NCBI GenBank assembly: GCA_947631015.1
Contig: CANRJS010000002.1
Location: forward strand, 1,726 to 65,725
DNA length: 64,000 nt
Source: an uncultured Clostridia bacterium
GTDB lineage: Bacteria; Bacillota; Clostridia; Oscillospirales; JAAYOS01
Direction: 5' to 3'
Both the position numbers and the translations under genes were made by a program. The notes beneath the pieces were generated by a model. The model did not search any database. It was not told the origin of the DNA and saw nothing but the letters and a program-made list of their open reading frames with translations. Shown piece after piece: positions 619 to 23,622 of this stretch. Position 1 is the stretch's first letter, and each line of letters starts with the position of its first letter.

Positions 619-719
619 CTCAACTTTCAATCGCCCAAAACGGACAACGAGTAGCACCGCCGTGATTCGGTATGACGCAAACCCGCCTGTCGACAAAGCC
701 GGAAGGAGGTCATAACAAC

Positions 720-1739: not shown

Positions 1740-1764
1740 TCGGCGATTATCCGCAGAATACTGA

Positions 1765-1802
1765 AAACCGCCCCGACATTAAAATGTCGGGGCGGCTTTT
1801 TT
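1765..1802 (+). terminator. Intrinsic terminator, likely bidirectional
   Basis: AAAA-CCGCCCCGACATT/AATGTCGGGGCGG-CTTTTTT between convergent genes. Confidence 0.8.
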
Positions 1803-1807
1803 GCTTT

Positions 1808-1930
1808 GAAATGTGCTTCAGTATACTTTATTGTCTCTTTGCACGCTTCCGCGCCTGTTCGCGCGGTTGAAGTTGCTTGCCATAGGCAAGCAACTTCGCG
1901 CAGGGCAATTTATTCGCCCGAGCACATTTC
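1808..1930 (-). repeat. Structured repeat family 1, copy A
   Basis: Aligns with copies at 11429-11555 and 43187-43321; bounded by 10-bp inverted repeat GAAATGTGCT/AGCACATTTC. Confidence 0.75.
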
Positions 1931-1942
1931 GCGCCGACTTTT

Positions 1943-3478: not shown

Positions 3479-4284
3479 CGTTCCGCCCTCCCCGGCATTA
3501 TCACCGCGCCCTGAACGCCGCGACGGTCGCCCGTGCGGCGGTGGGAGAAGAAATACTCCGGCTCGCACATGGTGCAGTGCGTGTCGAGGTCTATGTTTTC
3601 CGCGCGCAGTCCCGCGCGCACAAGTTCTGTAAAGTTCAGCATGCCGAGGTCGGGGAAAAACTTCTCCCCGCGCTTAGGGCAGAGCGGCGCGGCGGCGTCT
3701 CCGAAGCGGCGCGCCATCGCCTCCGCGACCTCCGGGGCGGTCTCGAAGCGGTCCCGCGAGATGTGCGGCCCTATCGCCGCGACGAGGCGGCGCGGCTCCG
3801 CGCCGTACTCCTCCGCGAGCCGTTCCACGGCGCGTCCCGCTATACCCGCGGCGGTGCCGCGCCATCCCGCGTGGACGGCGGCGGCCGCGCCGCTAACCGG
3901 GTCGAATATCAGCACCGGCGTGCAGTCCGCTACGAATACCATCAGCGCGAGCGCCGTGCGGTCGCTTATGACTCCGTCCGCGTCCGGACGGTCGGGGCGG
4001 AAAAGCCCCTCCCCCGCGTCCGCGCGACGGACTGTCGACGAATGTACCTGACGGCTCATGACTACGTTTTCGCGCGAAAAGCCTACGGCCTCCGCAAGGA
4101 GGTCGTAGTTTTTATACACGTTTTCCGGGTCGTCTCCGCAGGATATGCGGAGATTCAGCGAGGCATATTCTCCCCCGCTCACGCCGCTGCGCCGCGTTGT
4201 GAAGGCGTGGCGCGCGCCGACTTCCCGCAGCTTGTCGCTTACGAGCAGGGTAAGACCCCGCTCCTGTATCATACGGAGCGCCAT
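3475..4284 (-). CDS. pgeF: PgeF/YfiH (YlmD) family peptidoglycan editing factor / purine nucleoside phosphorylase
   Basis: QVHS, ADC, HAGWRG and FFSHRR motifs. Confidence 0.9.
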   Translation of the reverse strand: MALRMIQERGLTLLVSDKLREVGARHAFTTRRSGVSGGEYASLNLRISCGDDPENVYKNYDLLAEAVGFSRENVVMSRQVHSSTVRRADAGEGLFRPDRPDADGVISDRTALALMVFVADCTPVLIFDPVSGAAAAVHAGWRGTAAGIAGRAVERLAEEYGAEPRRLVAAIGPHISRDRFETAPEVAEAMARRFGDAAAPLCPKRGEKFFPDLGMLNFTELVRAGLRAENIDLDTHCTMCEPEYFFSHRRTGDRRGVQGAVIMPGRAER

Positions 4285-7070
4285 CAGTCTGCGTCTTTAC
4301 CGGCGTTCTGCACGGACGGAGCGCCGTTCGGGTATCTGCCGTGGCATTTCTTGTACTTGAGACCGCTGCCGCAGGGGCAGGGCTCGTTCGGGCCTATCTT
4401 CTTTCCGACACGCACCGGCGCGCGGGTGACGGTCTTTGCCGCCTTCGCCGTCGAGGGGAAGTTCCCGTGGGACGCCTCGGTGGGCTTCGCCACCGCCTGA
4501 CGCTTAGGCTGTTCGCGCGTGATGCGGACGGTAAGGATATACTTCGGCGTGTCCTCGCGTATCGAGGCTATCATCTCGTCGAACATATCCATGCCCTCGC
4601 GCTTGTACTCGTTCTTCGGGTCGACCTGCGCGTATGCGCGGAGGCCGATGCCCTGGCGGAGCTCCTGCATCGCGTCGATGTGATCCATCCAGCGGTTGTC
4701 GACCGTGCGGAGAAGTATTACACGCTCGAGCTCGCGCATATTCTCGGAGCCTATCTCCGCCTCGCGGCGCTCGTATGCCTCGTGGCCGCGCCGCTTGAGG
4801 AATTCCTCAAGCTCGCTCTTGCTCTGTCCCTCGAACTTCAGCTCGCCCTTCTCGAGGAATATCTGCTCGTACTTGACGGCAAGCTCCTCGACCTGGTACG
4901 CCTCCGGCGCCTTCTCGTCGCCGACGGCAGCGGCGACCGACGCCTCGATGCTCGAGTCGAGCATCGAGAGTATCGAACGCTTGAGGTCGTGGCCGTCAAG
5001 CACCTCGTAGCGCTGCTTGTATATCATCTCGCGCTGCTGGTTCATAACGTCGTCGTATTCGAGGACGTTCCGGCGTGTCTGGTAGTGGCGGCTCTCTATG
5101 CGCTTCTGCGCGGACTCTATCGCGCCGCTCAGCATCTTCTGGTCGAGCGGCGTGTCATCGTCGACGCCCATGCGGCTCATCATCATGTCTATCCGCTCCG
5201 AGCCGAAGAGGCGCATCAAGTCGTCCTCGAGGGAGATATAGAACCGGCTGCTTCCCGGGTCGCCCTGACGTCCGGAACGTCCGCGGAGCTGGTTGTCTAT
5301 GCGCCGCGCCTCGTGGCGCTCGGTGCCGATGACGAAAAGTCCGCCCGCCTCGCGGACCTTCTCCGCCTCGTCCTTTATCTCCTCCTCGAAGCGGCTTACA
5401 AGCTCGGTAAACTTCTCCCGCGCCTCAAGTATCTCCTCGTTGTCGGTGGCTCCGTGTCCGTCCGCCTCGGCGACGGCCTCGTCGGAATATCCCTGCTTGC
5501 GGAGCTCGTGGCGCGCCATGTACTCGGCGTTTCCGCCGAGGATGATGTCGGTACCGCGTCCCGCCATGTTCGTCGCTATCGTCACCGCGCCGAACTTGCC
5601 AGCCTGCGCGATGATATCCGCTTCCTTGTCGTGATATTTCGCGTTGAGGACGTTGTGCTTGATACCGGTGCGCTTCAGCATCGCGCTCAGCTCCTCGCTC
5701 TTTTCTATCGAGACGGTGCCGACGAGCACCGGCTGTCCCTTCGCGTGGCACTCCTTTATCTGCTCGACGATGGCGCGGAGCTTCGCAGCCTGCGTCCGGT
5801 AGACGACGTCCGGCAGGTCCTCGCGTATCATCGGCTTGTTCGTGGGTACCTCGACAATGTCAAGCTTGTATATCTCCCCGAACTCCTCCTCCTCGGTCTT
5901 GGCGGTGCCGGTCATGCCGGAGAGCTTGTCATACATGCGGAAGAAGTTCTGGAAGGTTATCGTCGCGAGCGTCTTGCTCTCGCGCTCGACCTTCACGCCC
6001 TCCTTCGCCTCTATCGCCTGATGCAGTCCGTCCGAATAGCGCCGCCCGAACATCATGCGGCCGGTGAACTCGTCGACTATGATGACCTCGCCGTCCTTAA
6101 CGACGTAGTCCACGTCGCGCTTCATCAGACCGTTTGCGCGTATCGCCTGATTGATGTGGTGAGAAATTGTAGAGTTCTCCGGGTCGGACAGGTTCTCGAG
6201 CCCGAAGAAGCGCTCCGCCTTCCGTGCGCCCGCTTCGGTGAGCGTGACCGTCCTCGCCTTTTCGTCGACGATGTAGTCGCCGCCGAGGTCTTCGTCGGCA
6301 AAGGTCTTGCTGTCCTGCTCCTTTATGCGGACGCAGGTGAGGCGTTTTGCAAACGAGTCCGCCTGAGCGTAGAGGTCGGTCGATTCGTCCCCCTGTCCCG
6401 AGATTATGAGCGGGGTGCGCGCCTCGTCTATGAGTATCGAGTCGACCTCGTCGACGATGGCAAAGTGGTGGCCGCGCTGGACCATATTCTCCTTGTATAT
6501 CGCCATATTGTCGCGGAGATAGTCGAAGCCGAACTCATTGTTCGTGCCGTAGGTGATGTCCGCGTCGTAGCTCGGCTTGCGCTTGTCCGGGTCGATGTCG
6601 TGAATGACGAGGCCGAGCGACATTCCGAGGAAGCGGTAGAGCTTCTCGAGCATCTCGCCCTGGTACTTCGCGAGGTAGTCGTTGACCGTTACGACGTGGA
6701 CGCCCTTGCCCTCGAGCGCGTTCAGATACGCCGCGAGCGGCGCGATGTAGGTCTTGCCCTCACCGGTCTTCATCTCGGCGATGCGTCCCTGATGCAGGAC
6801 TATTCCGCCGAGCAGCTGTACGCGGAACTGCCGCTTTCCGAGCACTCGGCGGCTCGCTTCGCGCACGGTCGCGAACGCCTCGACGAGCAGGTCGTCAAGC
6901 GTCTCTCCCTTCGCAAGGCGCTCTTTGAACTCCTTTGTCTTGCCGGAGAGCTGCTCGTCCGTAAGCTTCATGTACTCCGGCTCAAGCGCCTCAATAGCGT
7001 CAACTATCGGATAAAGCTTTTTAAGCTCGCGGTCGTTCTGCGAGCCGAATATTTTAGTAAAGATACCCAT
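4284..7070 (-). CDS. secA: Preprotein translocase ATPase SecA
   Basis: [28 protein letters not shown]-terminal [14 protein letters not shown]. Confidence 0.98.
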
Positions 7071-7315
7071 TTGGCAACGCTCCTTTCTGCCCTGCGCTCA
7101 GCGCATGACAATACAGTGTATAGTATAGCACACCCATGCGCCGAATTAAAGTTGAATTTATGAACAAACGCAAAATTTTTCTTTACAAGGCGGCGCGTTT
7201 CAGTTATACTTAAAAGGCTATGGAACCGATGAGGAGACTTCGTTTTATGAGGATTTGAGCCGGCACAAAGAGAATACGACACCGTATGCCGAACATTTGA
7301 AAGGATGGAACTCTC

Positions 7316-8440
7316 TTGCTGATAGAATTTGACGAATATAAGCAGAAGCTTGCGGCTCTCGCGCCGCGTCTCGACGAGCTCGGGAAGGCTCTCGGGCTGG
7401 ACGCGGCAAAGAAGGAGCTCGAGGAGCTCGAGGAGCTTGCGGCGTCGGACGGCTTCTGGAACGACATCGAGCACTCGCAGAAGGTCCTTCAGCGCACAAA
7501 GCAGCTCCGCGACAAGATAGCGGGCTATAATAAGCTGAAAAGCATGCACGACGACGCGGTGACGCTCTGCGAGCTCGCCGTCGAGATGGATGACGACAGC
7601 CTCATTGACGAGCTGCGCGAGCAGTACGCCGCGCTCGAAAAGGACCTCGAGGAGGCGACGCTTTCGACCCTCCTCAACGGCGAGTATGACCACAACAACG
7701 CCATCCTCACCTTCCACGCCGGCGCGGGCGGTACCGAGGCGCAGGACTGGGCGCAGATGCTTTTCCGCATGTACACCCGCTGGGCAGAGCGCCACGGCTA
7801 CAAGTGTACGACGCTTGACTACCTTGACGGAGACGAGGCCGGCCTCAAGAGCGCTACCATCTCGATAGAGGGCGAGAACGCCTACGGCTACCTCAAGGGC
7901 GAGAACGGCGTCCACCGCCTCGTGCGCGTGAGCCCGTTCGACGCGGCGGGACGCCGCCACACCTCCTTTGCCGCGCTCGAGGTCATGCCCGAGATAGACG
8001 ACAATGAGGAGATAGAGATACGCGACGAGGATCTGAAGGTCGACACCTACCGCTCCTCCGGCGCGGGCGGTCAGCACATCAACAAGACCGAGAGCGCGAT
8101 ACGCATAACGCATATCCCCTCCGGCGTGGTCGTGAGCTGTCAGACCGAGCGCAGCCAGCACCAGAACCGCGAGTACGCCATGCGCATGCTCCGCGCGAAG
8201 CTCGCCGAGATAAAGGAGCGCGAACATCTCGACCGAATTGACGACATCAAGGGCGTCCAGATGAAGATAGAGTGGGGCAGTCAGATCCGCTCCTACGTCT
8301 TTATGCCCTACACTCTCGCGAAGGACCACCGCACGAACTTCGAGAACGGCAACATCAACGCCGTCATGGACGGCGACCTCGACGGATTCATCAACGCGTA
8401 CCTTCGCGCGCTTGCCACCGGCGAGCTTATCAAGAAATAA
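7316..8440 (+). CDS. prfB: Peptide chain release factor 2, uninterrupted frame
   Basis: SPF tripeptide and GGQ motif; TTG start. Confidence 0.95.
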   Translation: MLIEFDEYKQKLAALAPRLDELGKALGLDAAKKELEELEELAASDGFWNDIEHSQKVLQRTKQLRDKIAGYNKLKSMHDDAVTLCELAVEMDDDSLIDELREQYAALEKDLEEATLSTLLNGEYDHNNAILTFHAGAGGTEAQDWAQMLFRMYTRWAERHGYKCTTLDYLDGDEAGLKSATISIEGENAYGYLKGENGVHRLVRVSPFDAAGRRHTSFAALEVMPEIDDNEEIEIRDEDLKVDTYRSSGAGGQHINKTESAIRITHIPSGVVVSCQTERSQHQNREYAMRMLRAKLAEIKEREHLDRIDDIKGVQMKIEWGSQIRSYVFMPYTLAKDHRTNFENGNINAVMDGDLDGFINAYLRALATGELIKK

Positions 8441-8464
8441 TTTGTGCTGCGGCAAAAAAATCTC

Positions 8465-8493
8465 TTGAAATGCCGCGCCGCTTGTGGTATACT
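8465..8493 (+). promoter_or_regulatory. Sigma-A promoter of secG
   Basis: TTGAAA-17-TATACT with extended -10 TG. Confidence 0.7.
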
Positions 8494-8535
8494 GTTAGAT
8501 ACTGCGGAATAGAATAATATTTGGAGGCGTTTGTT

Positions 8536-8766
8536 TTGAAACTCGTTTTTACGATCATTCAGGTGCTCGCGAGCCTGTTCCTTATCGCGGTCGTCCTTCT
8601 CCAGAGCGGTAAGCGCTCCGGCCTCAGCGGCGCTATTTCCGGCGTTGCGGATACCTTCCTTGCCAAGAACCAGGCAAAGACGTGGGATGCGCGCCTCGCC
8701 AAAATGACGACCTGGGTGGCTATCCTCTTCATCGTCCTCACGCTCGCGATAAACCTCATCCCGTAA
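8536..8766 (+). CDS. secG: Preprotein translocase subunit SecG
   Basis: Two TM helices, VLLQSGKRSGLSGAISG; GGAGG RBS. Confidence 0.9.
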   Translation: MKLVFTIIQVLASLFLIAVVLLQSGKRSGLSGAISGVADTFLAKNQAKTWDARLAKMTTWVAILFIVLTLAINLIP

Positions 8767-8784
8767 ATCAAACCTCAGTAACGG

Positions 8785-8884
8785 AAAGCGGAGCCTCACG
8801 GCTCCGCTTTTTCAGTCTGTCCCGTCTTTTGCCGCAAGCGCACAAAAGACCGGCAAGGCCTTATCGGCCTTGCCGGTCTTTTTG
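8785..8884. terminator. Two hairpin terminators between convergent secG and abrB
   Basis: AAAGCGGAGCC/GGCTCCGCTTTT and AAAAGACCGGCAAGGCC/GGCCTTGCCGGTCTTTT. Confidence 0.7.
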
Positions 8885-8977
8885 TTACATGGCTGAACAC
8901 CCATAAAAACGGGTACAAAACACAGTGCGAACGCGGGTACCCGTTCGCGCCATGCTTTTCGTCCGTTTTTCGAAGCG

Positions 8978-9217
8978 CTATTTTGCAAGCTCCTCCAGGC
9001 AGGACTTGCAGACAAGCTTGCCCTTAAACTCGGTAAGCGAGCTGTCCGCCCCGCAGAACACACAGCGGTCGCTGTGCTTCCGCAGAATAATGTTTTCACC
9101 GTCCACATAGATTTCAAGCGGGTCCTTCTCCGCTATCTCCAGCGTTCGGCGCAGCTCGATCGGCAGCACGACCCGTCCGAGCTCATCTACTTTCCTGACG
9201 ATTCCGGTAGTCTTCAT
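8978..9217 (-). CDS. abrB: AbrB family transition-state regulator
   Basis: MKTTGIVRKVDELGRVVLPIELRRTL; C-terminal CxxC..CxxC. Confidence 0.92.
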   Translation of the reverse strand: MKTTGIVRKVDELGRVVLPIELRRTLEIAEKDPLEIYVDGENIILRKHSDRCVFCGADSSLTEFKGKLVCKSCLEELAK

Positions 9218-9262
9218 TCCGCATAGCTCCTTAGTCTTAATGCCGGTACATGGTAAATAACT

Positions 9263-9315
9263 TGTCGAAAACAACCGTACCTTTACATTATATTGTTCAC
9301 AATTTGAGTTGTCAA
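9263..9315 (-). promoter_or_regulatory. abrB sigma-A promoter with downstream Spo0A box
   Basis: TTGACA-17-TATAAT (9315-9287); TGTCGAA 0A box at 9263-9269. Confidence 0.75.
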
Positions 9316-9383
9316 CAACTTTTTTCATTTTTTGGCAAAAATGCATAGTTTTTTTGTATTCCCTTCGTTTGAGGTGGTAAAAT

Positions 9384-10274
9384 TTGGTGATTGATACGGT
9401 CTGGCTCCTGCTGATTATCTGTTCCGTCGTGTTCGGCGCGGCGAACGGGCGTCTCGGCGACGTGAGCGCCGCCGCGCTCGACGGCGCGAAGACTGCGGTC
9501 GAGCTCTCCATCTCTCTTGCCGGCACGCTCTGCCTCTGGAACGGCGTGCTGGAGGTCATGCAGCGCGCCGGGCTTGACCGCGCGCTCGCCCGCGCGGCGC
9601 GCCCGCTGCTCGGGCGTCTCCTGCCGGACATCCGCTCGGACGACGAGGCGCTCGGCGCGGTCTCCGCAAACCTCTCCGCAAACCTCCTCGGGCTCGGTAA
9701 CGCCGCGACGCCGCTCGGCATCCGCGCCGCGTCTCTGATGGCGCGCGGTGAACGCGCTACCGACTCGCTCTGCACCTTCGTCGTGATGAACACGGCGTCG
9801 CTCCAGCTCGTACCGGCGACGATTGCGGCACTGAGGGCGTCGCTCGGCGCGAAGTCGCCGTTTGACATTCTCCCCGCCGTGTGGTGCTCGAGCGCCGTAG
9901 CGCTCGCGGCGGGGCTCGCGGCGGACCGGCTTTTCCGCCGCATCGGACGGCGGCGGGGCAAAAAGGGCGATGACGGCTCTGTGCCTTCCCCGCGCCGGTA
10001 CGAAAGGAGCGCGGCAGAAGCGGGCATGTCCAAGCGCGGTGGGGACCCCGGCACGCCTGGCTCCGATACTTCGGACGGCGGCGCAGAGCATCCGGTCGGG
10101 CACGAAGCCGAATCCTCCGGCGCGGCGCACGGCAAACATGCGGCGGCGTCCCGGCGCGGCGGAGCTGCTGTCCGCCCCGCCCCCGCGCGGAACCGGTGCG
10201 GCGCGCAATCCGCGTGGAACGCGCGTCGTGCGTCAGAAGTTCCGGCTCGCGGCGCGGGAGAGATTTCACCGTGA
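9384..10274 (+). CDS. spmA: Spore maturation protein A with long low-complexity C-terminal tail
   Basis: LWNGVL, ANLLGLGNAATPLG, NTASLQLVPAT. Confidence 0.85.
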   Translation: MVIDTVWLLLIICSVVFGAANGRLGDVSAAALDGAKTAVELSISLAGTLCLWNGVLEVMQRAGLDRALARAARPLLGRLLPDIRSDDEALGAVSANLSANLLGLGNAATPLGIRAASLMARGERATDSLCTFVVMNTASLQLVPATIAALRASLGAKSPFDILPAVWCSSAVALAAGLAADRLFRRIGRRRGKKGDDGSVPSPRRYERSAAEAGMSKRGGDPGTPGSDTSDGGAEHPVGHEAESSGAAHGKHAAASRRGGAAVRPAPARNRCGAQSAWNARRASEVPARGAGEISP

Positions 10275-10789
10275 GCGCGGTGATGAACGCTCTTCTCCCC
10301 GGAATACTCGCGCTTGTGGGCGCGGCGGCGCTCGTGCGGCGCGTGGAGCTGTTCGCGGCGCTCACCGACGGGGCGAGGGAAGGTCTCAGGACGGCGGCGG
10401 GGATAGTTCCTGCGCTCGTCGTGCTGTTCACGGCGATATATATGTTCCGCGCGAGCGGCGCGCTCGACCTCCTCACCGGTCTGCTGCGTCCGGCGGCGGA
10501 GGCCGTTGGGATACCCGCCGAGTGCATCCCGCTCGCGCTGATACGTCCGTTCAGCGGTTCGGGCGCGCTCGCGCTCGGCGCGGACATCATACGCGCCGCC
10601 GGTGCGGACTCGCTTGTGGGGCGCACGTCGGCGGTGATGCTCGGCTCGACCGAGACGACCTTCTACGTTATCGCCGTCTACTTCGGTGGCGCGGGTGTGA
10701 CAAAGAGCCGCCATGCTCTCCCGGCGGCGCTCGTCGCGGACGTCACCGGTTTCTGCATGGCGGCTCTGTTCTGCCGTATATTCGGTTAG
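10271..10789 (+). CDS. spmB: Spore maturation protein B
   Basis: RPFSGSG, GSTETTFYVIAVYFG; GTG overlaps the spmA stop. Confidence 0.9.
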   Translation: MSAVMNALLPGILALVGAAALVRRVELFAALTDGAREGLRTAAGIVPALVVLFTAIYMFRASGALDLLTGLLRPAAEAVGIPAECIPLALIRPFSGSGALALGADIIRAAGADSLVGRTSAVMLGSTETTFYVIAVYFGGAGVTKSRHALPAALVADVTGFCMAALFCRIFG

Positions 10790-10803
10790 CTTCGGCGCGT
10801 CTC

Positions 10804-11211
10804 CTAGAGGTCAACGTGGACATGGTCCACGCCGCTCTGCTCGAACTCCGCCGTGTACTCTGCTATGCGGCGCTCCATCTCCTCGCCCTCCTCGGCGCGG
10901 AGACCCTCCGCCTGCATATCCCTGCGGCTCAGCTCCTCGGCGAGGATGTCGAAGAACATGGCGTCTTCATAGTCCATTATCGCCTCGTGGATGCCGCCCT
11001 CGACGAACGCGCGGCTCGCCTGTATCGTCCCGTCGCGGAACTCCGCGAGCTCGGGCATACCGGCGCGCATGGCCTCAAAGAACATCCTGCTCTCGATGTC
11101 GTCATAAGCCGTGATGCGATCCTCTCCGCGTGCGCTGTTCAGTACCCAGTTTCCGATGTAGACCATGTCGAGGAGCAGCCGGAACTGCTTCTGTGTAAGC
11201 TCGATGTTCAA
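10804..11211 (-). CDS. Hypothetical acidic protein
   Basis: TTG start with purine-rich RBS; host-like codon usage; protein-like composition. Confidence 0.7.
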   Translation of the reverse strand: MNIELTQKQFRLLLDMVYIGNWVLNSARGEDRITAYDDIESRMFFEAMRAGMPELAEFRDGTIQASRAFVEGGIHEAIMDYEDAMFFDILAEELSRRDMQAEGLRAEEGEEMERRIAEYTAEFEQSGVDHVHVDL

Positions 11212-11297
11212 TCTGCCTACCCCCAATCGTATGTCTTTGGTGCAGGTCTCTATTATATACCATCCCGGGAGGAAATACAAGAGATGTCGCTCACGCG

Positions 11298-11668
11298 TCG
11301 CGAAAAATAGGTCGCGGGCTTCGCCCGCGACCTGTTTTTCGCGAGACCGCCGGACAAGGCAAAGCCTTGCCGGCGGCAAGCGCTGCGCTACGCGCCGAGT
11401 TTTCCGCCTTCGGCAGAAAATCGATGCATTCCCACGCGGTCGGCGACCGCGTGGGAGCCCTTTTGATTGAAATGCTCGCCCCGAATGAATCGGGGCTCCG
11501 CGAAGTTGGCGGCAAAGCCGCCAACTTCAACCGCGCGAACAGGCGCAGATGCCGCCCTTGGCGGCGTAGAGGGTCGGGGGCAGTATAGGTTCGAGGGCGC
11601 ATTGTACACGCCGCCGGAAAAAACGATTTGACTTTATTTCGCGCCGGAGGCGCGAAACTCTGCGAGGC
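11298..11668. repeat. Chain of hairpins (REP/MITE-like mosaic) containing family 1 copy B (11429-11555)
   Basis: At least seven consecutive inverted repeats; 11649-11668 is the exact reverse complement of 16407-16426. Confidence 0.75.
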
Positions 11669-11671
11669 CAC

Positions 11672-11703
11672 AAAAAGACGGGGCCGCAGATGCGGCCCCG
11701 TCT
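11672..11703 (-). terminator. Terminator of the BMP lipoprotein gene
   Basis: AGACGGGGCCGCA/TGCGGCCCCGTCT followed by a T-run on the minus strand. Confidence 0.8.
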
Positions 11704-11732
11704 AACGCTCCGGCAAAAGCCGGAATCATCTC

Positions 11733-12863
11733 TTACTGGAAGCTCTCGGGCGTGACGTTGTTGAAGTTCGCGGCCGGGACTATCTCTCCGCTCTTGACCT
11801 TCGCATAAGCGTCGGTGAGGGCGCTGAGGGTAGCCTCGCTGAGCTGCTGACGGCCGTCGGCGGAGACATAGCCAGTGGAGTCGGTGTCGGCATGGAGGGT
11901 GTAGTTGCCGCCCTTGAAGGTGCCGTCCTCGATGGCGTTGAGCTGACGCTCGACCTCCTGCGCCATGTTCTTGAGAACGGAGGTGAGGACGATGTTCGTG
12001 TCGCCGTTGGCGCCGTCGTCATACTGGTCGACGTCGCAACCGATGACCTTGACACCGGTGGCTTCCTTGGCGGCGGTGAACACGCCGTTGCCGGAGTTGC
12101 CCGCGGCGACGAAGATTATGTCGCAGCCCTCGGCTATGAGCGCCTCGCCTATGACCTTGCCGGTAGCCTCGTCGTTAAAGTCGCCGACGTAGTTGCCGCC
12201 GACATTCGTATCGGCGACGTCGGTGCCCGCGTAGGACGGGAGCTCGACTATCTCGGCGGAGGCGCCGAGGTTCTTGTTGGCGTAGTAGACGCCGGACTCA
12301 AAGCCGTACTGATAGTTGACGTTCGACGGGAACGCGACACCGTTGACAACCGCGACCTTGCCGGTCTGTGTCTCCATCGCGGCGGCGATGCCGGCGAAGA
12401 AGCCGCTCTCCTGCTCCGCGAACTGCATGGCGTAGATGTTGTCGACCGTTATCTCGTTGCTCTCGGCGTCGGCCGGGAAGCTGTCGACAAGGATGAACTT
12501 CTTGTCCGGGTTCTCCTGAGCCAGAACGCCGATGCCGGCGAACTGGAAACCCGGGGTGACGATGACGTCATAGTCGGCAAAGCAGTCCGCGACGGCCTGG
12601 ACGGAGGCGGTAGCCTCGCCGGTCGGCTCGTTGACGGGGGTGACGGTGGCGCCGGGATGATTCGCGATGAACGCGAGGATGCCGTTGTAGTTATCCTCGT
12701 TGAAGGAGCCGTCGTCAACGCCGCTCGGGCTGGTGACGATGGCTATCTTGAGCGTGCTGGGGTCTCCGCTCGGCTCTCCGCTTGTGGTCGAGTTACCGCC
12801 GCCGCAGGCGACGAGCCCGAAGCACATGACGAGCGCGAGGGTAAGTGCAAGCACTTTCTTCAT
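11733..12863 (-). CDS. BMP family ABC substrate-binding lipoprotein (nucleoside-binding type)
   Basis: LVAC lipobox, DDGSFN, IFVAAG, IGCDVDQ; own TTGAAA-17-TATAAT promoter. Confidence 0.88.
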   Translation of the reverse strand: MKKVLALTLALVMCFGLVACGGGNSTTSGEPSGDPSTLKIAIVTSPSGVDDGSFNEDNYNGILAFIANHPGATVTPVNEPTGEATASVQAVADCFADYDVIVTPGFQFAGIGVLAQENPDKKFILVDSFPADAESNEITVDNIYAMQFAEQESGFFAGIAAAMETQTGKVAVVNGVAFPSNVNYQYGFESGVYYANKNLGASAEIVELPSYAGTDVADTNVGGNYVGDFNDEATGKVIGEALIAEGCDIIFVAAGNSGNGVFTAAKEATGVKVIGCDVDQYDDGANGDTNIVLTSVLKNMAQEVERQLNAIEDGTFKGGNYTLHADTDSTGYVSADGRQQLSEATLSALTDAYAKVKSGEIVPAANFNNVTPESFQ

Positions 12864-13004
12864 TTTGATATTCCTCCCATAAATTTTAGGCATAACGGTG
12901 CGGAACGCTCTTTAAACACGATCCGACACCGTTTTCAGTGTCATTATAGCACCGCGCCCGCACCATTTCAAGGCGATAACTTCCACAATCTGCACAGTCC
13001 GGCG

Positions 13005-14075
13005 TTACTTTTTTTGGTTAAAAAGACCACGGAGCGAGACGTCAAACGGCGGACGCAGCACCCCGTGCTCGGTGACGATGCCGGTGATAAGGCTGTGGTC
13101 GGTCACGTCGAAGGCGGGGTTGTAGCATTTCACACCCTCCGGAGCCATCCGCTTCGAGTAGAACTTCTCCGCTATCTCCTCCGGGTCGCGGAGCTCTATC
13201 TCAATGTCGTCTCCCGTGGGACAGTCCATGTCTATCGTGGAGGTCGGCCCGAGGACGTAGAATGGTATGCCGTAGTACTTTGCGAGTATCGCGACGCCAG
13301 AGGTGCCTATCTTGTTTGCGGCGTCGCCGTTGGCGGCGATGCGGTCGCATCCGACGAGGCACGCGTCTATCCAGCCGTTTTTCATCACTATGGACGCCAT
13401 GTTGTCGCATATCAGCGTGACGTCTATCCCGGCGGCGTGCAGCTCGTAGCTTGTGAGGCGCGCGCCCTGGAGCAGCGGACGCGTCTCGTCCGAGAAGACG
13501 CGGAAGTTCATCCCTTTCTCCCGCCCGAGGAAGAGCGGGCCGAGCGCCGTGCCGTAGCGCGAGGTCGCGAGCGGGCCTGCGTTGCAGTGGGTGAGGACGC
13601 CCGCGCCGTCATGCAGCAGCGAAAGTCCGTACTCGGAGATGCGGCGGCACATGTCTATGTCCTCGTCCTGTATTGCCTGCGCCTCACGGTCGAGCGCGGC
13701 GATACGCTCCGCGCGCGGAAGCGCGCTCACGGCGCGCGCCACAGAGCACATGCGCTTCAGCGCCCAGGAGAGGTTCACCGCCGTCGGACGCGAGGAGTTG
13801 AGGTAGTCCGCAAGCCGCTTGAACTCGCGGACAAAGTCCTCGCCGTCCGCGTCTATCCCACGCGCGAGCGCCGCCATGCCGAAGCCCGCGCAGATCCCTA
13901 TAGCCGGAGCTCCGCGCACGCGCAGGAGCTTTATCGCCTCGTAGAGCGCTTCGGCGCTCGCGAGCTCGATGTATTTCACCTCGTTCGGAAGGAGCGTCTG
14001 GTCGATGATCGTGACCGTGGCTCCGCCCGAGCTGGGATATACGTTTTTCACGTGTGTGACGCTTCTGATGTCCAT
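13005..14075 (-). CDS. mtnA: S-methyl-5-thioribose-1-phosphate isomerase
   Basis: [41 protein letters not shown]. Confidence 0.95.
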
Positions 14076-14113
14076 ATTTGTTCTCCTTTTTGTAAGTGTA
14101 TTTTTCGGTTTTT

Positions 14114-15043
14114 TCAGAATCTGAATCCGCTCTTGAACGCCCTCGATGCGAACGCCGCCTCGTACTTCTCTATCGGGTAGAGCTCTATCGGCGGAAGTGT
14201 GACAAGTCCCCTCTCGAGCAGGCGCAGAGCCGGCTCGAACGGGCCGCAGCGGCTGCCGACGAGCGTCACCTCGTTCACGACGAAGTCCGCGAGGTTCATC
14301 GGCGTCTTCTCCGCAAACGTGCTCTTGAGGACGAGCGTTCCGCGGTGCCGCACGAGCCGCCTCGCCGTCTCGAAGCCGGAGGCCGAGCCGGACGCGTCCA
14401 CGACGAGCTCGAACGTCTCGTCCTCGCGGAGCTCCGTTCGTGCGAACGGACGGAAGCGCTCGAGCTTTTCGGGGTGCTTGCCCGCGACGACGACCTCCGC
14501 GCCGGTGAGCGCGAGCACCTGCGCTATCATAAGAGCGAGGCGTCCGTCGCCGACGACGGCGGCGGGCTCGCTCGGGCGGACGTGTACCTTGTCCGGTATC
14601 TCGAGCGCTGCCGCGAGAGGTTCGCAGAAGACCGCGACCTCGTCCGGCAGTCCGTCCGGTATGCGGTGGAGGAGGTCGGTGCGGAGCGTCATATACTCCG
14701 CAAAGCAGCCGTCCTTGTCCGCAAGTCCGATCACGCGGCGGTGGATGCAATGCCCCTCCCTACCGGTGCGACAGTAGATGCACTCCCCGCAGCCGGCGTT
14801 CAGCTCGCCGACGACGCGCGCGCCGATAAGCGACGGGTCGGGCGAGCGCTCGACCGTGCCGACAAACTCGTGACCCATCACGCCCCGGAAGTCCGGCTTG
14901 TAGCCCGCAAGCACCTCGCGGTCGGTGGAGCATATCGCCGCGAGCCGTGTCTTTATCAGGCTCTCGCGCTCCCCCGGCTCGGGGACCGGCAGGTCGGTAC
15001 GGAATACCGGCCTCGGCTCGCCCGTGTAGCAAAGTCCCTTCAT
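14114..15043 (-). CDS. Zn-dependent alcohol dehydrogenase (MDR family)
   Basis: [20 protein letters not shown]; GDGRLA nucleotide-binding loop. Confidence 0.9.
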
Positions 15044-15169
15044 ACGTCTTCTCCCTCCCGCCGCGCGGCGGCTGGTGTGCGGCCGCGCGGCACGTTTGCT
15101 GTTATTATGTCGATTATTATATCACGCTTTCGGAGAAAATGGAAGCGTTCATTGTGGCGGAAGCAGAGA

Positions 15170-15200
15170 AGGAGCGCGGCATCGTATGTGCCGCGCTCCT
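15170..15200 (-). terminator. Hairpin, probable terminator
   Basis: AGGAGCGCGGCA/TGCCGCGCTCCT. Confidence 0.55.
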
Positions 15201-15208
15201 CACACTTC

Positions 15209-15544
15209 TCAGTCAACTTGATCCTCATTTTCCTCACCCTCCTGCGGTGCGGAAAACAGTTCGTCTGCAATAGCTTTTGCATTTTGCAGGTGCAAATAAG
15301 GGATATAGAATCTTACTCTCTCCAACATCGGCCCGATCTTTAATGCCAACCCTGCTCCCAATACATTTTTTGTCAGATAAGGAATGTCGTTTTGTTTCAG
15401 TACATCCTCAAGCATTCCGGCCCACACGGCTTTCTGTTCGGTGAGGAAACAGAGGTCGCCGGGCTTGGGCGGCCGGACATTTTGATTTCCGCAAACGGGA
15501 CACCGATTTTCGTCAAAAACAATGCCGCATCTTTCACAGTACAC
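15209..15544 (-). CDS. Small Zn-ribbon protein with DUF2007-like domain
   Basis: CERC..CPVCG; LEDVLKQNDIPY; GGAGGT RBS before GTG. Confidence 0.65.
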   Translation of the reverse strand: MYCERCGIVFDENRCPVCGNQNVRPPKPGDLCFLTEQKAVWAGMLEDVLKQNDIPYLTKNVLGAGLALKIGPMLERVRFYIPYLHLQNAKAIADELFSAPQEGEENEDQVD

Positions 15545-15548
15545 AGCG

Positions 15549-16025
15549 TTACCTCCCTTCCTCCTCTTCAATATCATCCAGTTTCCTTCGCCTCTTTTTA
15601 TATACGCAACGGAAAACCTCCATAATTGCAAAACACAGTATATACACTCCAACGCACATTACGGCGATCCGAACTGTGGCGCCGAGCTCGATCGGTTTCT
15701 TCAAAATAACAAACGCTCTGACGGCGTTAACAGCTCCAAAGATGAATGAAGGTATCAGACTTGTAATGACGTTTGTTTTAAATGTCGGAGTATACTTCCG
15801 CGTCCACAGGCCGTTTTTCAGGCCGGAAAACACAATATAAACGCTTGCCGCAGATAAAGCGGCAAGCTCGCCCATCAGCTCTTTCAGAGTCGTCCCCATC
15901 AACGCCTGCAATAGAACGGCGACAGCCAATACCCAGAACACCAGCCAAAAACCAAACTCCTCAATTTTCAGCAATTTGTTGTCCTGCATTTCATCGAGCA
16001 TATTATTTGATTTTTTGTATTTCAT
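15549..16025 (-). CDS. Four-TM membrane protein (DUF6773-like)
   Basis: LDEMQDNKLLKIE N-terminus, four hydrophobic segments, adjacent to the XRE gene. Confidence 0.7.
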   Translation of the reverse strand: MKYKKSNNMLDEMQDNKLLKIEEFGFWLVFWVLAVAVLLQALMGTTLKELMGELAALSAASVYIVFSGLKNGLWTRKYTPTFKTNVITSLIPSFIFGAVNAVRAFVILKKPIELGATVRIAVMCVGVYILCFAIMEVFRCVYKKRRRKLDDIEEEEGR

Positions 16026-16026
16026 G

Positions 16027-16239
16027 TTAATTTTCCTCCTCTCCGAACAGTTCGTCAAGCGATTTCCCCAGCACCTTGCAAATAGCGCGGCACAGTTTTA
16101 TCGTCGGGTTATAATCTCCCTGTTCTATGGCGTTCATCGTCTGCCGGGAAACGCCGACAGCCTCCGCAAGTTCCTTTTGCGTTATGTCCAACGAGCCTCT
16201 TGCCGCCTTGATTTTTACATTCCTGGCTATCGTAACCAC
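16027..16239 (-). CDS. XRE/Cro family HTH regulator
   Basis: TQKELAEAVGVSRQTMNAIEQGDYNPT. Confidence 0.92.
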   Translation of the reverse strand: MVTIARNVKIKAARGSLDITQKELAEAVGVSRQTMNAIEQGDYNPTIKLCRAICKVLGKSLDELFGEEEN

Positions 16240-16247
16240 CCCTCTAT

Positions 16248-16288
16248 ATAGTAATATATATCTGAATAAATGTCAAGTATATACGACA
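16248..16288 (-). promoter_or_regulatory. Promoter with palindromic operator over the -35
   Basis: TTGACA-17-TACTAT; imperfect palindrome TGTCAAGTATATACGACA at 16271-16288. Confidence 0.6.
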
Positions 16289-16350
16289 AATTTGTGGTCT
16301 CATTTTTTATCTTCGCTTGTCAACAAACTTTTCCGCATTCTTTGAAATCC

Positions 16351-16394
16351 GCCGCGAACACAACAAAGCCGGGAGGATAGTCCTCCCGGCTTTT
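16351..16394. repeat. Terminator-containing direct repeat, copy 1
   Basis: GCCGCG..AAAGCCGGGAGGA-loop-TCCTCCCGGCTTTT; matches 17344-17387. Confidence 0.75.
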
Positions 16395-16455
16395 CTGCTT
16401 GTCAAAGCCTCGCAGAGTTTCGCGCCGACGAAACGGCGATTTCCCGCGAAAGTCT

Positions 16456-17232
16456 TCAGCTGCTCCAGCCTCTCCCGCCTGTCGGGTCTATGTTCCCCGG
16501 ATACACATAGTCGTCTACGAGCCAAACTCCGTCCACGCATTTCACCGTGAAGTCAACGTAGCTTGCGGAGAAGTCGGGAGGCGTCTGAACCTCGATTTGC
16601 AGACGTATCCTGTCCTTCTCCGTGTCCGCCGTTTTCGCGGAGGGTATGTTCAGCGCAGGAGTCCAGCCCGTTCTCCACGGGCATTTCCTCCAAATTTTGC
16701 CGTCGTATTCCTCGATAAAGTGATTCTCCGTAACCGCCGCCGTGAATTGTTCCGCGCCTTCGTCGGTAAAGCACTCGCTTACCGCTTCGTCAAAGTTTAA
16801 GATCTCCTCGAAACCCGCCCCCTGCACCGTGCCGTCCTCCAAAGTGAAGGGATGCATCGTCGAATTGTACTCTCCGAGTTCAAAAGGACCAGCCAAATCC
16901 TCGTTGTACATCGAATTGACGTTGTACCACAGCTCGACAACGCGGGCTGTTATGTCATTCCCGTCAATATCGAGCACGGTCAGGTTGTAGTCCTCCGGAT
17001 CGTACGGAAGCGGTTCATCGGACACGGGCGGCGCGCCCACATCCGGCGTTTTGCTTGGGGAAGGCGCCTCCGGCCCATCGGACACAGCCTCGGGAGACGC
17101 GCTCGAACCGGGTGTTTCGCTTTGACGGACGTCGCTCCCCCGCTCCGGACTTACGTTTTCGCCCGCGCCGACGCCGCACGAGCAGAGCAGCATCGCAAAC
17201 ACGATAACAACGGAAATAAGTATCTTTTTCAC
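16456..17232 (-). CDS. Lipoprotein, possibly IseA-like DL-endopeptidase inhibitor domain
   Basis: LCSC lipobox, S/P-rich linker, FTDEG..FIEEYDGKI..VDGVWLVDD pattern. Confidence 0.6.
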   Translation of the reverse strand: MKKILISVVIVFAMLLCSCGVGAGENVSPERGSDVRQSETPGSSASPEAVSDGPEAPSPSKTPDVGAPPVSDEPLPYDPEDYNLTVLDIDGNDITARVVELWYNVNSMYNEDLAGPFELGEYNSTMHPFTLEDGTVQGAGFEEILNFDEAVSECFTDEGAEQFTAAVTENHFIEEYDGKIWRKCPWRTGWTPALNIPSAKTADTEKDRIRLQIEVQTPPDFSASYVDFTVKCVDGVWLVDDYVYPGNIDPTGGRGWSS

Positions 17233-17343
17233 ACTTCCGCCCCCTCTCAAAGTTCCGGCTGTGCTGCTTCTTTATGTAAAATTTGTGCTAAAATAATTAT
17301 ATAATAAAGGAAATAATATGTCAACTATTTCCTATTTTATTTT

Positions 17344-17387
17344 GCCGCGCACATAAAAAGCCGGGAGGAAATATCCTCCCGGCTTTT
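17344..17387. repeat. Terminator-containing direct repeat, copy 2
   Basis: Matches 16351-16394; also the likely terminator of the GH5 gene. Confidence 0.75.
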
Positions 17388-17422
17388 ATAACGCCGAAAA
17401 ACAGGGAACGGCGCATAATCGT

Positions 17423-18526
17423 TCAGAATCTCAGCCAGCCCTGATTCACGCAGCGTCCGGCGTCGTCGCATTGCGCGTCGAGGCCGTCCGCGATGACCTT
17501 CCACGTCCAGTAGAACCACCCCATCGCGTCGCGCATACTGTCTTGGAAACTGTCCGCGACGGTGGTGTAGAGGTAGTCCTTCTCGGCCTTCGTCATCTCC
17601 GCAAGGCCGTCCGCATGGTTCTGCGCGTTCCACTCGCCCACTATCAGCGGCACACGCCTCGCGGCGGCGTTCACACGCTCGCCGAGTCCGCGCAGATACT
17701 CCGCGTAGACCTCTACGTTCCGCTCGCGGAAAATGGTCATGTCCGGAGTCATGAGATAGTTGTGCGTATCCAGCACCGCGCCCTCGAGCGAGCCCAGAAA
17801 CTCATCCCAGATATCGAGCTCGAACGCGTCCGAGAACACTACGTACTTCTCCGGCCCCGCGTGGCGGCGGATGGCGGCGTAGGCATCGAGGTAGAAGCGC
17901 TTTAGAAAGTCGAGCGTATAGCTCTCGTTCTTCTTCGCGAGCTCTTTATCGACCGGCTTGTAGAACTCCACGAGGCTGTTGATGTTAAGGAGCTTGCCCG
18001 CCTCGGTGTCGCTGCACATCGGCTCGTTCAGAACTTCTATGCCCCACAATGCCTCGCGCTTCCCGTAGCGCTCCGCTATCTGCTCCAGGACGTCCACCGT
18101 GTAGCGGACGTACTCCGGCTTTGTCGACCACATGCAGATGCCGCAGATGCCCGAGTTGTCGGTTCCGTTGTGGCCGCCGGGCGCGGTGTGGAGGTCGACC
18201 AGTATTTTCAGTCCGAACTTCTCCGCCCAGTCGAAGGCGCGGTCAAGGTACTCATAACAATGTATGTACGGCCCGACGTCTTCAAAGAGGAAGAACGGCA
18301 CCGGGATGCGGACGGCGTTGAAGCCCTTCGCCGCTATTTCCTCAAAGTCCCGCTCGGATATGAACTCGTCGCGGTGGACCTTGAGCCGCTCCGCCGCGCG
18401 CTCGCGGCCGAGCTCCACGCACAGATATGTCTCATCCTCTGCGCTCGTTCCCGAGAACAGCGCCTCCGTCATCCACTTTTCAAGCACCAGCCAGTTTCCG
18501 AGGTTGACCCCGCGCAGCTTTTCCAT
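17423..18526 (-). CDS. Glycoside hydrolase family 5 (exo-beta-glucanase-like)
   Basis: RGVNLGNWLVLEKWM, NEP acid/base and VGEW nucleophile; TTGACA-17-TATACT promoter. Confidence 0.9.
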   Translation of the reverse strand: MEKLRGVNLGNWLVLEKWMTEALFSGTSAEDETYLCVELGRERAAERLKVHRDEFISERDFEEIAAKGFNAVRIPVPFFLFEDVGPYIHCYEYLDRAFDWAEKFGLKILVDLHTAPGGHNGTDNSGICGICMWSTKPEYVRYTVDVLEQIAERYGKREALWGIEVLNEPMCSDTEAGKLLNINSLVEFYKPVDKELAKKNESYTLDFLKRFYLDAYAAIRRHAGPEKYVVFSDAFELDIWDEFLGSLEGAVLDTHNYLMTPDMTIFRERNVEVYAEYLRGLGERVNAAARRVPLIVGEWNAQNHADGLAEMTKAEKDYLYTTVADSFQDSMRDAMGWFYWTWKVIADGLDAQCDDAGRCVNQGWLRF

Positions 18527-18678
18527 GTTGCTCCTCCCTTTCCGTTCTCTTTAAGTCCAGTATAAACGCAGAAAGAAATCGTGTCAACAACAACTCGCCC
18601 GCTTTTTGTCCCGTTAATGCCGGGCACACGCAAACACGTCCGATCCACGACCGCTGCACTTCTGTTGCAAATCTACTG

Positions 18679-18975
18679 CCCCCGGAAACTCACCCGGTCG
18701 GACGACAGATTTGTTCGATACAGAGTGTCGTCTGGTTATGTGGGTTCCGGTTGTGTGTCTGTATTCGGGAGAGGGATCGTTAAGGGAGAGGGCGAAGCCC
18801 TCTCCCTTAAACGCGCTTTTTGGTTACTTTTTACGCGAGCAAAAATGTATCGCGTGCGGGCTCGAACCTTTTCCGCGTAGATACATTCTACAGCCCGCAC
18901 TAGCATTGTCCGCTTCGCGGACAATGCCCAACATTTTCTTCACGAAACTGTGCGGGGCGGCACAGCCCCGCAAGG
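18679..18975 (+). repeat. Structured repeat family 2, left copy
   Basis: 18679-18845 is an inverted near-copy of 23072-23236; includes the AAGGGAGAGGGC/GCCCTCTCCCTT hairpin. Confidence 0.85.
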
Positions 18976-19035
18976 TATCGAAACCGCTAGGTTCCGCATA
19001 AAACCTCGAAGTTTTACTTCGTCAACAACGCTGTT

Positions 19036-19281
19036 TTATGCCGCGAGCTTTGCTAAAATCTCCCTCTCAAAGAAGCTCTTTACCTCGTGTCTCTCGACCG
19101 AGTGGACCTCTCCGTCCACCGTGACGTTCACGCCGGCGGTGCAGCTTCCCATGCAGAAGGCGGCGGAGACGCGCACCCTGTCCTCAAGTCCGTTCTCGCG
19201 TATCAGATATTGCAGCTCCTCGAGCACTCCCGCGGCGCCCTTCAGGTGGCAGGAGCTCCCGATGCAGACGGTCACATTCAT
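19036..19281 (-). CDS. Thioredoxin-like [2Fe-2S] ferredoxin-domain protein (HfsA-like)
   Basis: VCIGSSCHLKG and FCMGSC. Confidence 0.8.
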   Translation of the reverse strand: MNVTVCIGSSCHLKGAAGVLEELQYLIRENGLEDRVRVSAAFCMGSCTAGVNVTVDGEVHSVERHEVKSFFEREILAKLAA

Positions 19282-19283
19282 AC

Positions 19284-20036
19284 TCACATGTAGTCCGTGA
19301 CGTTGACCCAGCCGAGCAGGAACTCCCGCTCCTCCGGCTTGCCCTTGACCGTCTGCGAGGCGGCGACTATCGGCAGCCACTTCTGGACGTTCTCGCGCGG
19401 CATGTCGCTCTTGCGGCAGAAGATGTCAAGATACTTCTCGGCGTTCTGGATGTCGCCCGCGAGCCAGAACAGCAGGTAGGTGCGGGCGGCGTCCGCCGCG
19501 CCGTCTCCCTGAGTGACGTGCGCCCAGTCGATGATGTACGCCTCGCCGTCCTTGTCGCTGATTATGACGTTCGAGGGGTTGAAGTCGCCGTGCAGGACCT
19601 CGCGGTGGCTCGGCATACCGTCGAGGCGGACGTTGAGGTCGTAGCGGAGCTCCGCGTCGAAGTTCGTCTCGGCTATCTTGCGGCGCATCTTGTCCTTGTG
19701 GCGGGTGAGGAGGCGGCAGCTGTGCGACTGTATTTCGAGCTGGGTATCGACGAGCCTTTCGAGGTAGGCGTCGGTCTTTTCGGGGTTCTCCTGCATGAGC
19801 TCCGCGAGAGTCTTGCCCGCGACGTACTCCATGACTATCGCCCACTTGCCGTCGATATTGGCGACCTCGAGGAGCTTCGGGACGCGCAGTCCCGCCTCCT
19901 CTATTCGGGCATGGTTCAGCGCCTCATTGAGAACGTCCGACTTGGCGTAGCTCTCGTCAAAGACCTTTATCTTCTTGCCGTCCTCCTGATAGATGCTCTT
20001 TCTGCCGTCGCTGTAAATAAGGTTGTCGAGCTTCAT
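19284..20036 (-). CDS. APH/choline kinase-like phosphotransferase
   Basis: HGDFNPSN and IIDW; ATGA overlap with adhE. Confidence 0.85.
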   Translation of the reverse strand: MKLDNLIYSDGRKSIYQEDGKKIKVFDESYAKSDVLNEALNHARIEEAGLRVPKLLEVANIDGKWAIVMEYVAGKTLAELMQENPEKTDAYLERLVDTQLEIQSHSCRLLTRHKDKMRRKIAETNFDAELRYDLNVRLDGMPSHREVLHGDFNPSNVIISDKDGEAYIIDWAHVTQGDGAADAARTYLLFWLAGDIQNAEKYLDIFCRKSDMPRENVQKWLPIVAASQTVKGKPEEREFLLGWVNVTDYM

Positions 20037-23615: not shown

Positions 23616-23622
23616 AGGCGCG

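Follow-up and report, generated by a model that had tools for sequence, protein, structure and literature searches.

The locus at 11429-11549 raises the question of why a chain of short hairpins should recur at dispersed sites with its pairing kept and its stem sequences changed, and whether such an element acts as RNA or moves as DNA. It lies in a 64,000-nt stretch (hereafter the window) that corresponds to G000:C2:1726-65725 of the source genome G000, a draft of 1.89 Mb in 43 contigs with 61% G+C and 98% completeness. The preliminary description of this DNA, made from three copies, had proposed a mobile single-stranded DNA or RNA element, either a REP-like substrate of an HUH enzyme or a small non-coding RNA, and had held a riboswitch to be less likely. 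To our knowledge, the small interspersed repeats of Proteobacteria and streptococci have received much study, those of gut Clostridia hardly any.

Results

Family 1 is a chain of four hairpins

The unit, here called family 1, is non-coding and about 120 nt long, and consists of hairpin P1, a linker, and hairpins P2, P3 and P4. In full units the order is the P1 hairpin, GCCCYTTYGATT, GAAATGCTC, P2 (loop ATGAA), TSCGC, P3, (C)AA and P4 (loop GAACMG). The window contains exactly three copies, termed A, B and C. These copies and the features associated with them are:

1841-1930, minus strand: copy A, consisting of P2-P3-P4 without P1
11401-11428, plus strand: small separate hairpin module (ttttccgccttcggcagaaaa then tcgatgca) that often adjoins family-1 units in mosaics
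11429-11549, plus strand: copy B, a full unit (covariance-model match of 137.7 bits at G000:C2:13152-13276)
11430-11456, plus strand: P1 of copy B, as read from the sequence, like the parts that follow
11457-11477, plus strand: linker of copy B
11478-11496, plus strand: P2 of copy B, loop ATGAA, followed by TCCGC
11502-11528, plus strand: P3 of copy B, followed by AA
11531-11548, plus strand: P4 of copy B, with one mismatch
11429-11603, plus strand: block of copy B plus a hairpin-and-tail module, polymorphic between species in an alignment of G000, G001, G002 and G005
43133-43186, no strand assigned: left copy of the 54-bp target duplication of copy C, comprising the duplicated stop codon and last 51 nt of the minus-strand gene 43320-44219
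43187-43319, plus strand: copy C, a full unit P1-P4 (43188-43308) with an 11-nt tail (covariance-model match of 124.4 bits)
43320-43373, no strand assigned: right copy of the same duplication, the 3' end that is still attached to the gene body

The positions and stems first given for the three copies were borne out by the sequence, as was the occurrence in copies B and C of P1 followed by CCCYTTTGATT. The P2 stems are GGGC/GCCC in A, GCCCC/GGGGC in B and GGCGG/CCGCC in C. P3 arms of 11-13 bp pair perfectly in all three. The P4 stems are CCGCGC/GCGCGG in A and CCGCCG/CGGCGG in C, and copy B has the 3' arm GCGCAG and with it one mismatch. The idea that loops and linkers are kept while stems are swapped holds for some junctions and for the P2 loop, but not for the loops of P1 and P3, which are the variable parts of the unit, nor for P4, whose stem is conserved. 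The conserved parts are the block TT.AAATGCTCG, the P2 loop AATGAAT, CT.CGCgA and the whole of P4, and mean column conservation among the copies of the source genome is equal for paired (0.82) and unpaired (0.81) positions.

Copy A starts 12 nt past the stop codon (1945-1943) of the minus-strand gene 1943-3568, and a hairpin resembling a terminator comes next, at about 1760-1800. The corresponding site of the related genome G001 holds a longer mosaic in which P1 is present.

Family 1 is a high-copy intergenic repeat in the source genome

A profile made from the cores of copies A, B and C returned 217 rows at E<=10 in the source genome, and 107 matches at E<1e-5, distributed over 31 contigs with 58 on the plus and 49 on the minus strand; 90 are near full length. 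Anchored patterns parsed 66 of these 107 copies, and an alignment of 54 with differing stems, copies B and C among them, gave the covariance model R1, which found 131 matches at E<=0.001 in the same genome. The three copies initially recognized are thus all real, but as a measure of the extent of the family they were a large underestimate. The classification as a dispersed non-coding element is supported, nearly all copies being intergenic and lying on either strand. Head-to-tail arrays that repeat every 118 nt or so were seen, among other places, at C12:9198-9676 and at the end of C16, and many copies are embedded in mosaics with other recurrent hairpin modules.

According to a crude gene caller, four of the 107 copies overlap an open reading frame by more than 30 nt and six lie at contig ends. 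The remainder comprise 31 copies between convergent genes, 10 between divergent genes and, between tandem genes, 24 in the sense and 32 in the antisense orientation, so that family 1 is scarcer between divergent than between convergent genes. The 3' end of a gene faces 95 of the 107 copies, with 49 copies running in the same direction as the nearest such gene and 46 in the opposite one. Variable orientation relative to neighbouring genes, already apparent from three copies, is therefore a property of the whole family and argues against a riboswitch, as the preliminary description had held. A riboswitch or other cis-regulatory leader was rejected on this ground, and also because only 10 of the 107 copies lie between divergent genes and the neighbours are unrelated housekeeping genes. 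Nor was one direction favoured when orientation was compared with GC skew (48 same, 50 antisense) or with the strand that carries most of the local genes (37 same, 31 antisense).

The location behind genes would suit a second kind of RNA function, namely a host-useful RNA that is either a 3'-UTR hairpin chain protecting or terminating transcripts or a family of small RNAs, the structure being selected as RNA. The 95 copies faced by a gene 3' end are in its favour, as is the start of copy A 12 nt past a stop codon, whereas the orientation relative to the upstream gene (49 same, 46 antisense) is random in the source genome.

The family is restricted to a few lineages

Among 60 relatives searched, G001, G002 and G005 of the same genus carry at least 57 units each and G003 and G004 of that genus none; matches in other genera were weak and confined to two of 55 genomes. 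Species of one genus thus differ in copy number from 0 to more than 100, which is not what the host-useful RNA would lead one to expect. A pattern scan with one genome per species yielded at least 105 stretches, and among those listed most fall into a few records of uncultured Clostridia. The named Oscillospiraceae among the matches listed are Muriventricola aceti, Pseudoflavonifractor phocaeensis, Flavonifractor sp. An100, Lawsonibacter celer and Flintibacter porci, and R1 confirmed full-length units at all 32 such loci tested.

In five whole genomes of named Oscillospiraceae, 9, 12, 2, 14 and 12 units were counted. The neighbours at 12 loci of these low-copy genomes are housekeeping genes, including aspS, infB, miaA, eno, metK, nadE, pta, lepA, secA and alaS; no transposase was present among the neighbours at these 12 loci, and no consistent neighbouring gene was found there. 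The presence of units behind highly expressed housekeeping genes in low-copy genomes is again in line with a host-useful RNA. In the same genomes, seven of eight units between tandem genes are antisense to the upstream gene, a small sample with coordinates read by eye, whereas the source genome is without such a bias; this excess is a weak hint of an RNA role of the reverse strand.

Pairing is maintained by compensatory change on both strands

Folded as single-stranded DNA, both strands of copies A, B and C reached z values of -5.3 to -9.0, and in all six folds none of 200 dinucleotide shuffles was as stable (copy B: -6.2 for the plus and -7.2 for the minus strand). The two strands of family 1 fold equally well. 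Double, compensatory changes were found in 25 of 33 predicted pairs among the 54 aligned copies of the source genome, a count that is inflated because these copies were picked for stem diversity. In 40 distinct units from other genomes, 91.4% of the cells pair, compared with 66.1% after column shuffles and 38-50% with slid partners, and double changes affect 31 of 35 pairs. This second alignment is biased, too, since 32 of its 41 source loci had been found by a pattern placed on the P2 region, whose conservation in this set is therefore partly given by construction. Compensatory stem change, originally deduced from three copies, is thus seen in both sets.

The types of pairs are informative with regard to the molecule on which selection acts. 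With 13 short extracts left out of the 107, the stems of the other 94 copies comprise 3192 Watson-Crick, 19 G:T, 18 A:C and 13 other pairs; the corresponding numbers across genera are 1153, 30, 29 and 82. Structured RNA usually shows G:U tolerance on one strand. Since G:T and A:C are about equally frequent, family 1 gives no indication of such an RNA-type tolerance, which speaks against the host-useful RNA. When the two outermost P1 pairs are left aside, the counts across genera are 13 G:T and 26 A:C, and this surplus of A:C represents a weak lean towards an RNA role of the reverse strand.

Rfam 15 gave no match in a gathering-score scan of the whole window. In an E-value scan of 11350-11720 all rows were at chance level, the best one over copy B reaching 16.6 bits against a gathering score of 45, and no self-cleaving ribozyme was detected by these Rfam scans. 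Family 1 thus matches no described Rfam family, a check that the preliminary description had recommended. With no Rfam match, G:T no commoner than A:C and strands that fold equally, the small non-coding RNA suggested there found no support.

Searches of four RNA-library runs with window positions 1-20000 retrieved assembled contigs of relatives, 92-99% identical, that contain units. In run X1 the bins with copies A and B have summed depths of 130.9 and 464.2, as would be expected of a 100-copy repeat. The occurrence of units in contigs from RNA libraries would be compatible with a host-useful RNA, but such assembled contigs are silent on strand, ends and expression level, and DNA carry-over into the libraries is possible.

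Six positional orthologues in G000 and G001 are 83% identical, compared with 92% for the rest of the same BLAST match, which is mostly coding. Units in place therefore diverge faster than their flanks, so that purifying selection in place cannot be claimed; this and the failure to match Rfam are further points against a host-useful RNA. On its side stand the hairpins conserved across genera, and cross-genus compensatory change together with conserved junctions would also fit a functional structured RNA. On balance we regard a host-useful RNA as an improbable origin of family 1. A passive stabilizing or mildly useful effect of hairpins at 3' ends is compatible with the main explanation given below and does not require a separate origin.

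Units insert at new sites and duplicate their targets

Copy C is one such insertion. G001, G003 and G004 have an empty site in which a 54-bp stretch occurs once, whereas in G000, G002 and G005 two copies of it flank the unit; overlapping BLAST matches of 50-55 bp bear the duplication out. The empty state is ancestral because G003 and G004 are without the family altogether, and since both of these family-free outgroup species are empty at the site, precise deletion is unlikely. At C4:18603 of the source genome, a P1-P4 unit with four extra nt at each end lies between two copies of a 16-bp stretch that is single at the empty site of G001. In G001 itself (C4:59300-59600), two tandem units have been inserted behind rplL and are flanked by a duplication of about 110 bp that takes in the terminator of rplL and, before it, the stop codon and last 57 nt of the gene. 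Comparison of G001:C4:59150-59720 with its counterparts showed that this site is empty in G000 (C17:6640-6960) and G005 and at least partly filled in G002. The P4-side junction of the rplL insertion holds, in inverted form, 15 nt of the sequence from across the start of the duplicated stretch. Such an inverted patch is explained by a template switch but not by a simple staggered cut. Mobility, previously a deduction from dispersal, is demonstrated directly by these empty and filled orthologous sites with duplications of 16, 54 and about 110 bp.

Empty-site proof is thus available for three insertions, two of which have duplications that cover the 3' end of a gene. A local-alignment survey of flanks revealed locus-specific direct repeats of 39-127 nt at about seven further or overlapping loci, which include one tRNA 3' end and three more 3' ends of protein genes. 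The target duplication is therefore often the 3' end of a gene, with the consequence that the gene stays intact. The majority of copies in the survey are without a flanking duplication, and long duplications may thus describe only a subset of events.

The two ends of the unit behave differently. The 5' end, at the foot of P1, mostly abuts the flanking repeat, which in most cases ends 0-2 nt before P1, whereas the 3' end is variable and consists of P4 plus 4, 11 or 23 nt, or of part of the next P1. The possibility that the duplicated gene end always has the same polarity was rejected, because the P4 side faces the intact gene at four loci and the P1 side at two or more (C25:2457 and the tRNA locus). 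At the tRNA locus (G000:C5:56157-56492; G001:C1:263900-264320), a CCA-terminated tRNA 3' end and the start of the terminator are doubled around a unit, 39-40 nt on each side, and this unit has a different hairpin in place of P1.

Units turn over and exchange parts

Copy B illustrates the behaviour of units after insertion. Between flanks shared by the two genomes, G001 has an unrelated 27-bp piece of another repeat module where the source genome has 11429-11603. Spread within mosaics is thereby a further mode, the unit having replaced the other module at this site. The block is absent from G002, and G005 has at this site a family-1 unit with different P2 and P3 stems. The module at 11401-11428 is present in G001 without a family-1 unit. 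Family-1 units have at least three other recurrent modules as neighbours, the combination differing from place to place, tandem duplications of element-plus-flank blocks occur with periods of 204-215 bp, and a unit with its tail module has opposite orientations at the same intergenic site of two genomes (G000:C2:67513-67641, which corresponds to window coordinates 65787-65916, past its end, and G001:C3:223154-223278). Units turn over and exchange parts, and some of the stem differences between species are accordingly due to replacement or re-insertion of whole units rather than to paired point mutations in place.

Two modules follow copy B in 11550-11720, first a hairpin (gccgcccttggcggc) whose tail of about 45 nt has ggttcgagggcgcatt at its end and then a hairpin followed by aaactctgcgaggc; both recur at many loci in the source and sister genomes.

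The window contains other differences between G000 and G001. The stretches 15200-16436, 17386-19037 and 59120-62089 (about 1.2, 1.65 and 3.0 kb) are present in G000 and absent from the syntenic region of G001, and the last of them contains an open reading frame of 921 aa at 59302-62064. The intergenic regions 22853-23617 and 24422-24606, which are GC-rich and differ between the two genomes, carry repeats that are not part of family 1, namely runs of cgcggggc/gccccgcg hairpins and a ttactttttgc...gcaaaaagtaa palindrome.

Six families of mobilizing enzymes gave no match above cut-off in six genomes of the genus

Enzymes were sought in six draft genomes of the genus with six families (Y1_Tnp, RVT_1, DDE_Tnp_1, rve, IS110 and TnpB); multi-copy IS elements often remain unassembled in drafts. 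Y1_Tnp (PF01797) had no match in any of the six genomes, while the control search was positive in six of 14 reference genomes, and two of the five other carrier genomes did have a match. RVT_1 (PF00078) was likewise without a match in all six, and a SINE-like retroelement was rejected on account of this absence of reverse transcriptase. DDE_Tnp_1 and rve gave no match in the six genomes either. For the TnpB zinc ribbon and for IS110 nothing scored above the cut-off in any of them; each gave two matches below it, those of IS110 lying in long unrelated frames of the two family-free genomes.

These results bear on the preliminary suggestion that family 1 is the substrate of an HUH enzyme of the RAYT type, i.e., a REP/REPIN-like sequence moved by a Y1 transposase acting on single-stranded DNA hairpins. 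High-copy extragenic palindromic hairpins, mosaics resembling BIMEs and pairing kept on both strands would all be expected of such a substrate. The suggestion is not sustained, as Y1_Tnp is lacking in six of six genomes of the genus and present in only two of five other carriers. Furthermore, insertion into lagging-strand single-stranded DNA would be expected to leave an orientation bias, which is seen neither with GC skew (48/50) nor with the majority gene strand (37/31). IS200/IS605-type insertion is not known to duplicate its target, in contrast to family-1 insertions with their duplications of 16-110 bp. We therefore consider it very improbable that family 1 is substrate of a RAYT.

A transposase acting in trans is another candidate. 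In this model family 1 would be a MITE-like non-autonomous transposon moved by an enzyme with a long and variable stagger, such as those of IS1634 and IS1549, supplied by a phage, a plasmid or an unassembled IS element. DDE_Tnp_1, which presumably covers IS4/IS1634-type enzymes, is absent from all six genomes of the genus, and rve, IS110 and TnpB gave nothing above cut-off. The consensus of family 1 starts with TTCCCA... and ends with ...GCGCGGAA; as read off this consensus, the ends share TTCC alone when one is reverse-complemented, and a terminal inverted repeat beyond it is not visible. The variable 3' end (P4 plus 4, 11 or 23 nt, or part of the next P1) does not fit the model, while the fairly precise 5' end, with the repeat ending 0-2 nt before P1 in most cases, does. 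A precedent for long, variable direct repeats, of 8-514 bp, exists in IS1549 and IS1634 (PMC2266710). With respect to an outside vector, the INPHARED phage collection contains no match to family 1, whereas IMG/VR has a single contig with the search pattern, in which a 41-bit unit at 767-883 lies beside a gene with a P22-like portal domain. This contig would make an outside vector possible, but one contig is too little to claim phage carriage of the family. Overall, a MITE-like origin appears doubtful to us. A limited search of the literature revealed no description of such repeats in Oscillospiraceae.

Discussion

Taking the data together, we conclude that family 1 is probably a lineage-restricted, non-coding, mobile and recombining interspersed repeat of the REP/BIME/BOX kind. 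It is best read as an undescribed repeat and not as a riboswitch, a dedicated small RNA or a RAYT substrate. Against this conclusion stands the fact that neither a mobilizing enzyme nor an intermediate was seen for family 1 in the draft genomes searched with the six enzyme families.

Insertion would be a copy-in event rather than classical cut-and-paste transposition. Its most likely route may be a template switch, linked to replication or repair, that leads into an existing copy and out again; alternatively, a hitherto unseen enzyme might make widely staggered cuts. We favour template switching because the 3' ends are variable, the ends overrun one unit, an inverted patch is found at rplL and none of the transposase families searched was found, although the argument draws on few events and, for the inverted patch, on one junction. 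A stalled or reversed replication fork would switch template into an existing family-1 copy and copy from the foot of P1 for about one unit, or for more if the donor is a tandem array. The original template would then be re-engaged 16 to about 115 nt behind the exit point, and this would produce the order target-element-target, often at gene 3' ends and terminators. That a hairpin chain spreads in this way, by template switching of forks between copies and independently of a dedicated transposase, is a tentative proposal to which we assign a modest chance. A second reading, in which a nuclease or integrase of a new kind would recognize the folded loops and cut with a wide stagger, is equally tenable.

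The hairpins may be kept because the element must fold, be it as DNA, single-stranded or cruciform, or as RNA made from it in either orientation. A need to fold in either orientation would explain why Watson-Crick pairs alone are tolerated.

Family 1 fills many intergenic regions of a 1.9-Mb genome and breaks assemblies at contig ends. Since it differs between species that are 92-94% identical, it affects the assembly of metagenome-assembled genomes, strain typing and possibly the behaviour of mRNA 3' ends. Long and variable duplications that occur without any of the searched transposase families make it a testable case of whether a repeat can spread by errors of replication or repair alone or depends on an enzyme. 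If the template-switch reading is true, family 1 could be called a 'template-switch parasite' that propagates itself, and no such way of spreading has been described for bacterial repeats. The carriers Muriventricola aceti, Lawsonibacter celer and Pseudoflavonifractor phocaeensis are cultured, and experiments are therefore possible.

Comparison with known repeat systems

REP, BIME and REPIN sequences are associated with RAYTs, occur in Proteobacteria and are built on a single palindrome of 20-40 nt; in the REP/REPIN-RAYT system the RAYT gene is present in the same genome, where it is typically flanked by repeats. Family 1 resembles them in being a high-copy extragenic palindromic sequence that lies on either strand, is commoner behind genes than in promoters, forms mosaics and has a lineage-specific copy number. 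By contrast, it is a 120-nt chain of four hairpins instead of a single palindrome, the six genomes of the genus yielded no RAYT/Y1 gene, its target duplications are long and its hosts are Gram-positive Clostridia. The likeness to BIMEs, i.e., modules in varying order and combination, is one of architecture only and implies no sequence relationship.

Bacterial MITEs such as Correia/NEMIS of Neisseria are short, non-autonomous intergenic repeats whose presence or absence varies between strains, and they possess terminal inverted repeats and duplicate a short target of constant length. Family 1 is also short, intergenic and polymorphic for presence or absence, but its ends share TTCC alone, its 3' end is variable and the length of its duplications varies about seven-fold.

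Long variable direct repeats of 8-514 bp are reported for IS1549 and IS1634, with no proposed mechanism (PMC2266710). These elements have in common with family 1 that the duplications are long and differ in length between copies (from 16 to about 115 bp in family 1), and they are the sole precedent we found for duplications that vary about seven-fold and exceed 100 bp. They differ in that they are autonomous elements of 1.5-2 kb encoding a DDE transposase, whereas family 1 is non-coding, has 120 nt and occurs in a genus in which DDE_Tnp_1 is absent from six genomes.

BOX, RUP and SPRITE of Streptococcus pneumoniae are described as small modular repeats with extensive secondary structure that are confined to a few close species; they are judged to be parasitic, are co-transcribed with neighbouring genes and insert anew only slowly (PMC3049150). 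Their modules and hosts differ from those of family 1, to which a sequence relationship is not expected, and long variable duplications do not figure in that description (PMC3049150). Nevertheless, family 1 is likewise a modular, highly structured interspersed repeat of a Firmicute that is present in few close species.
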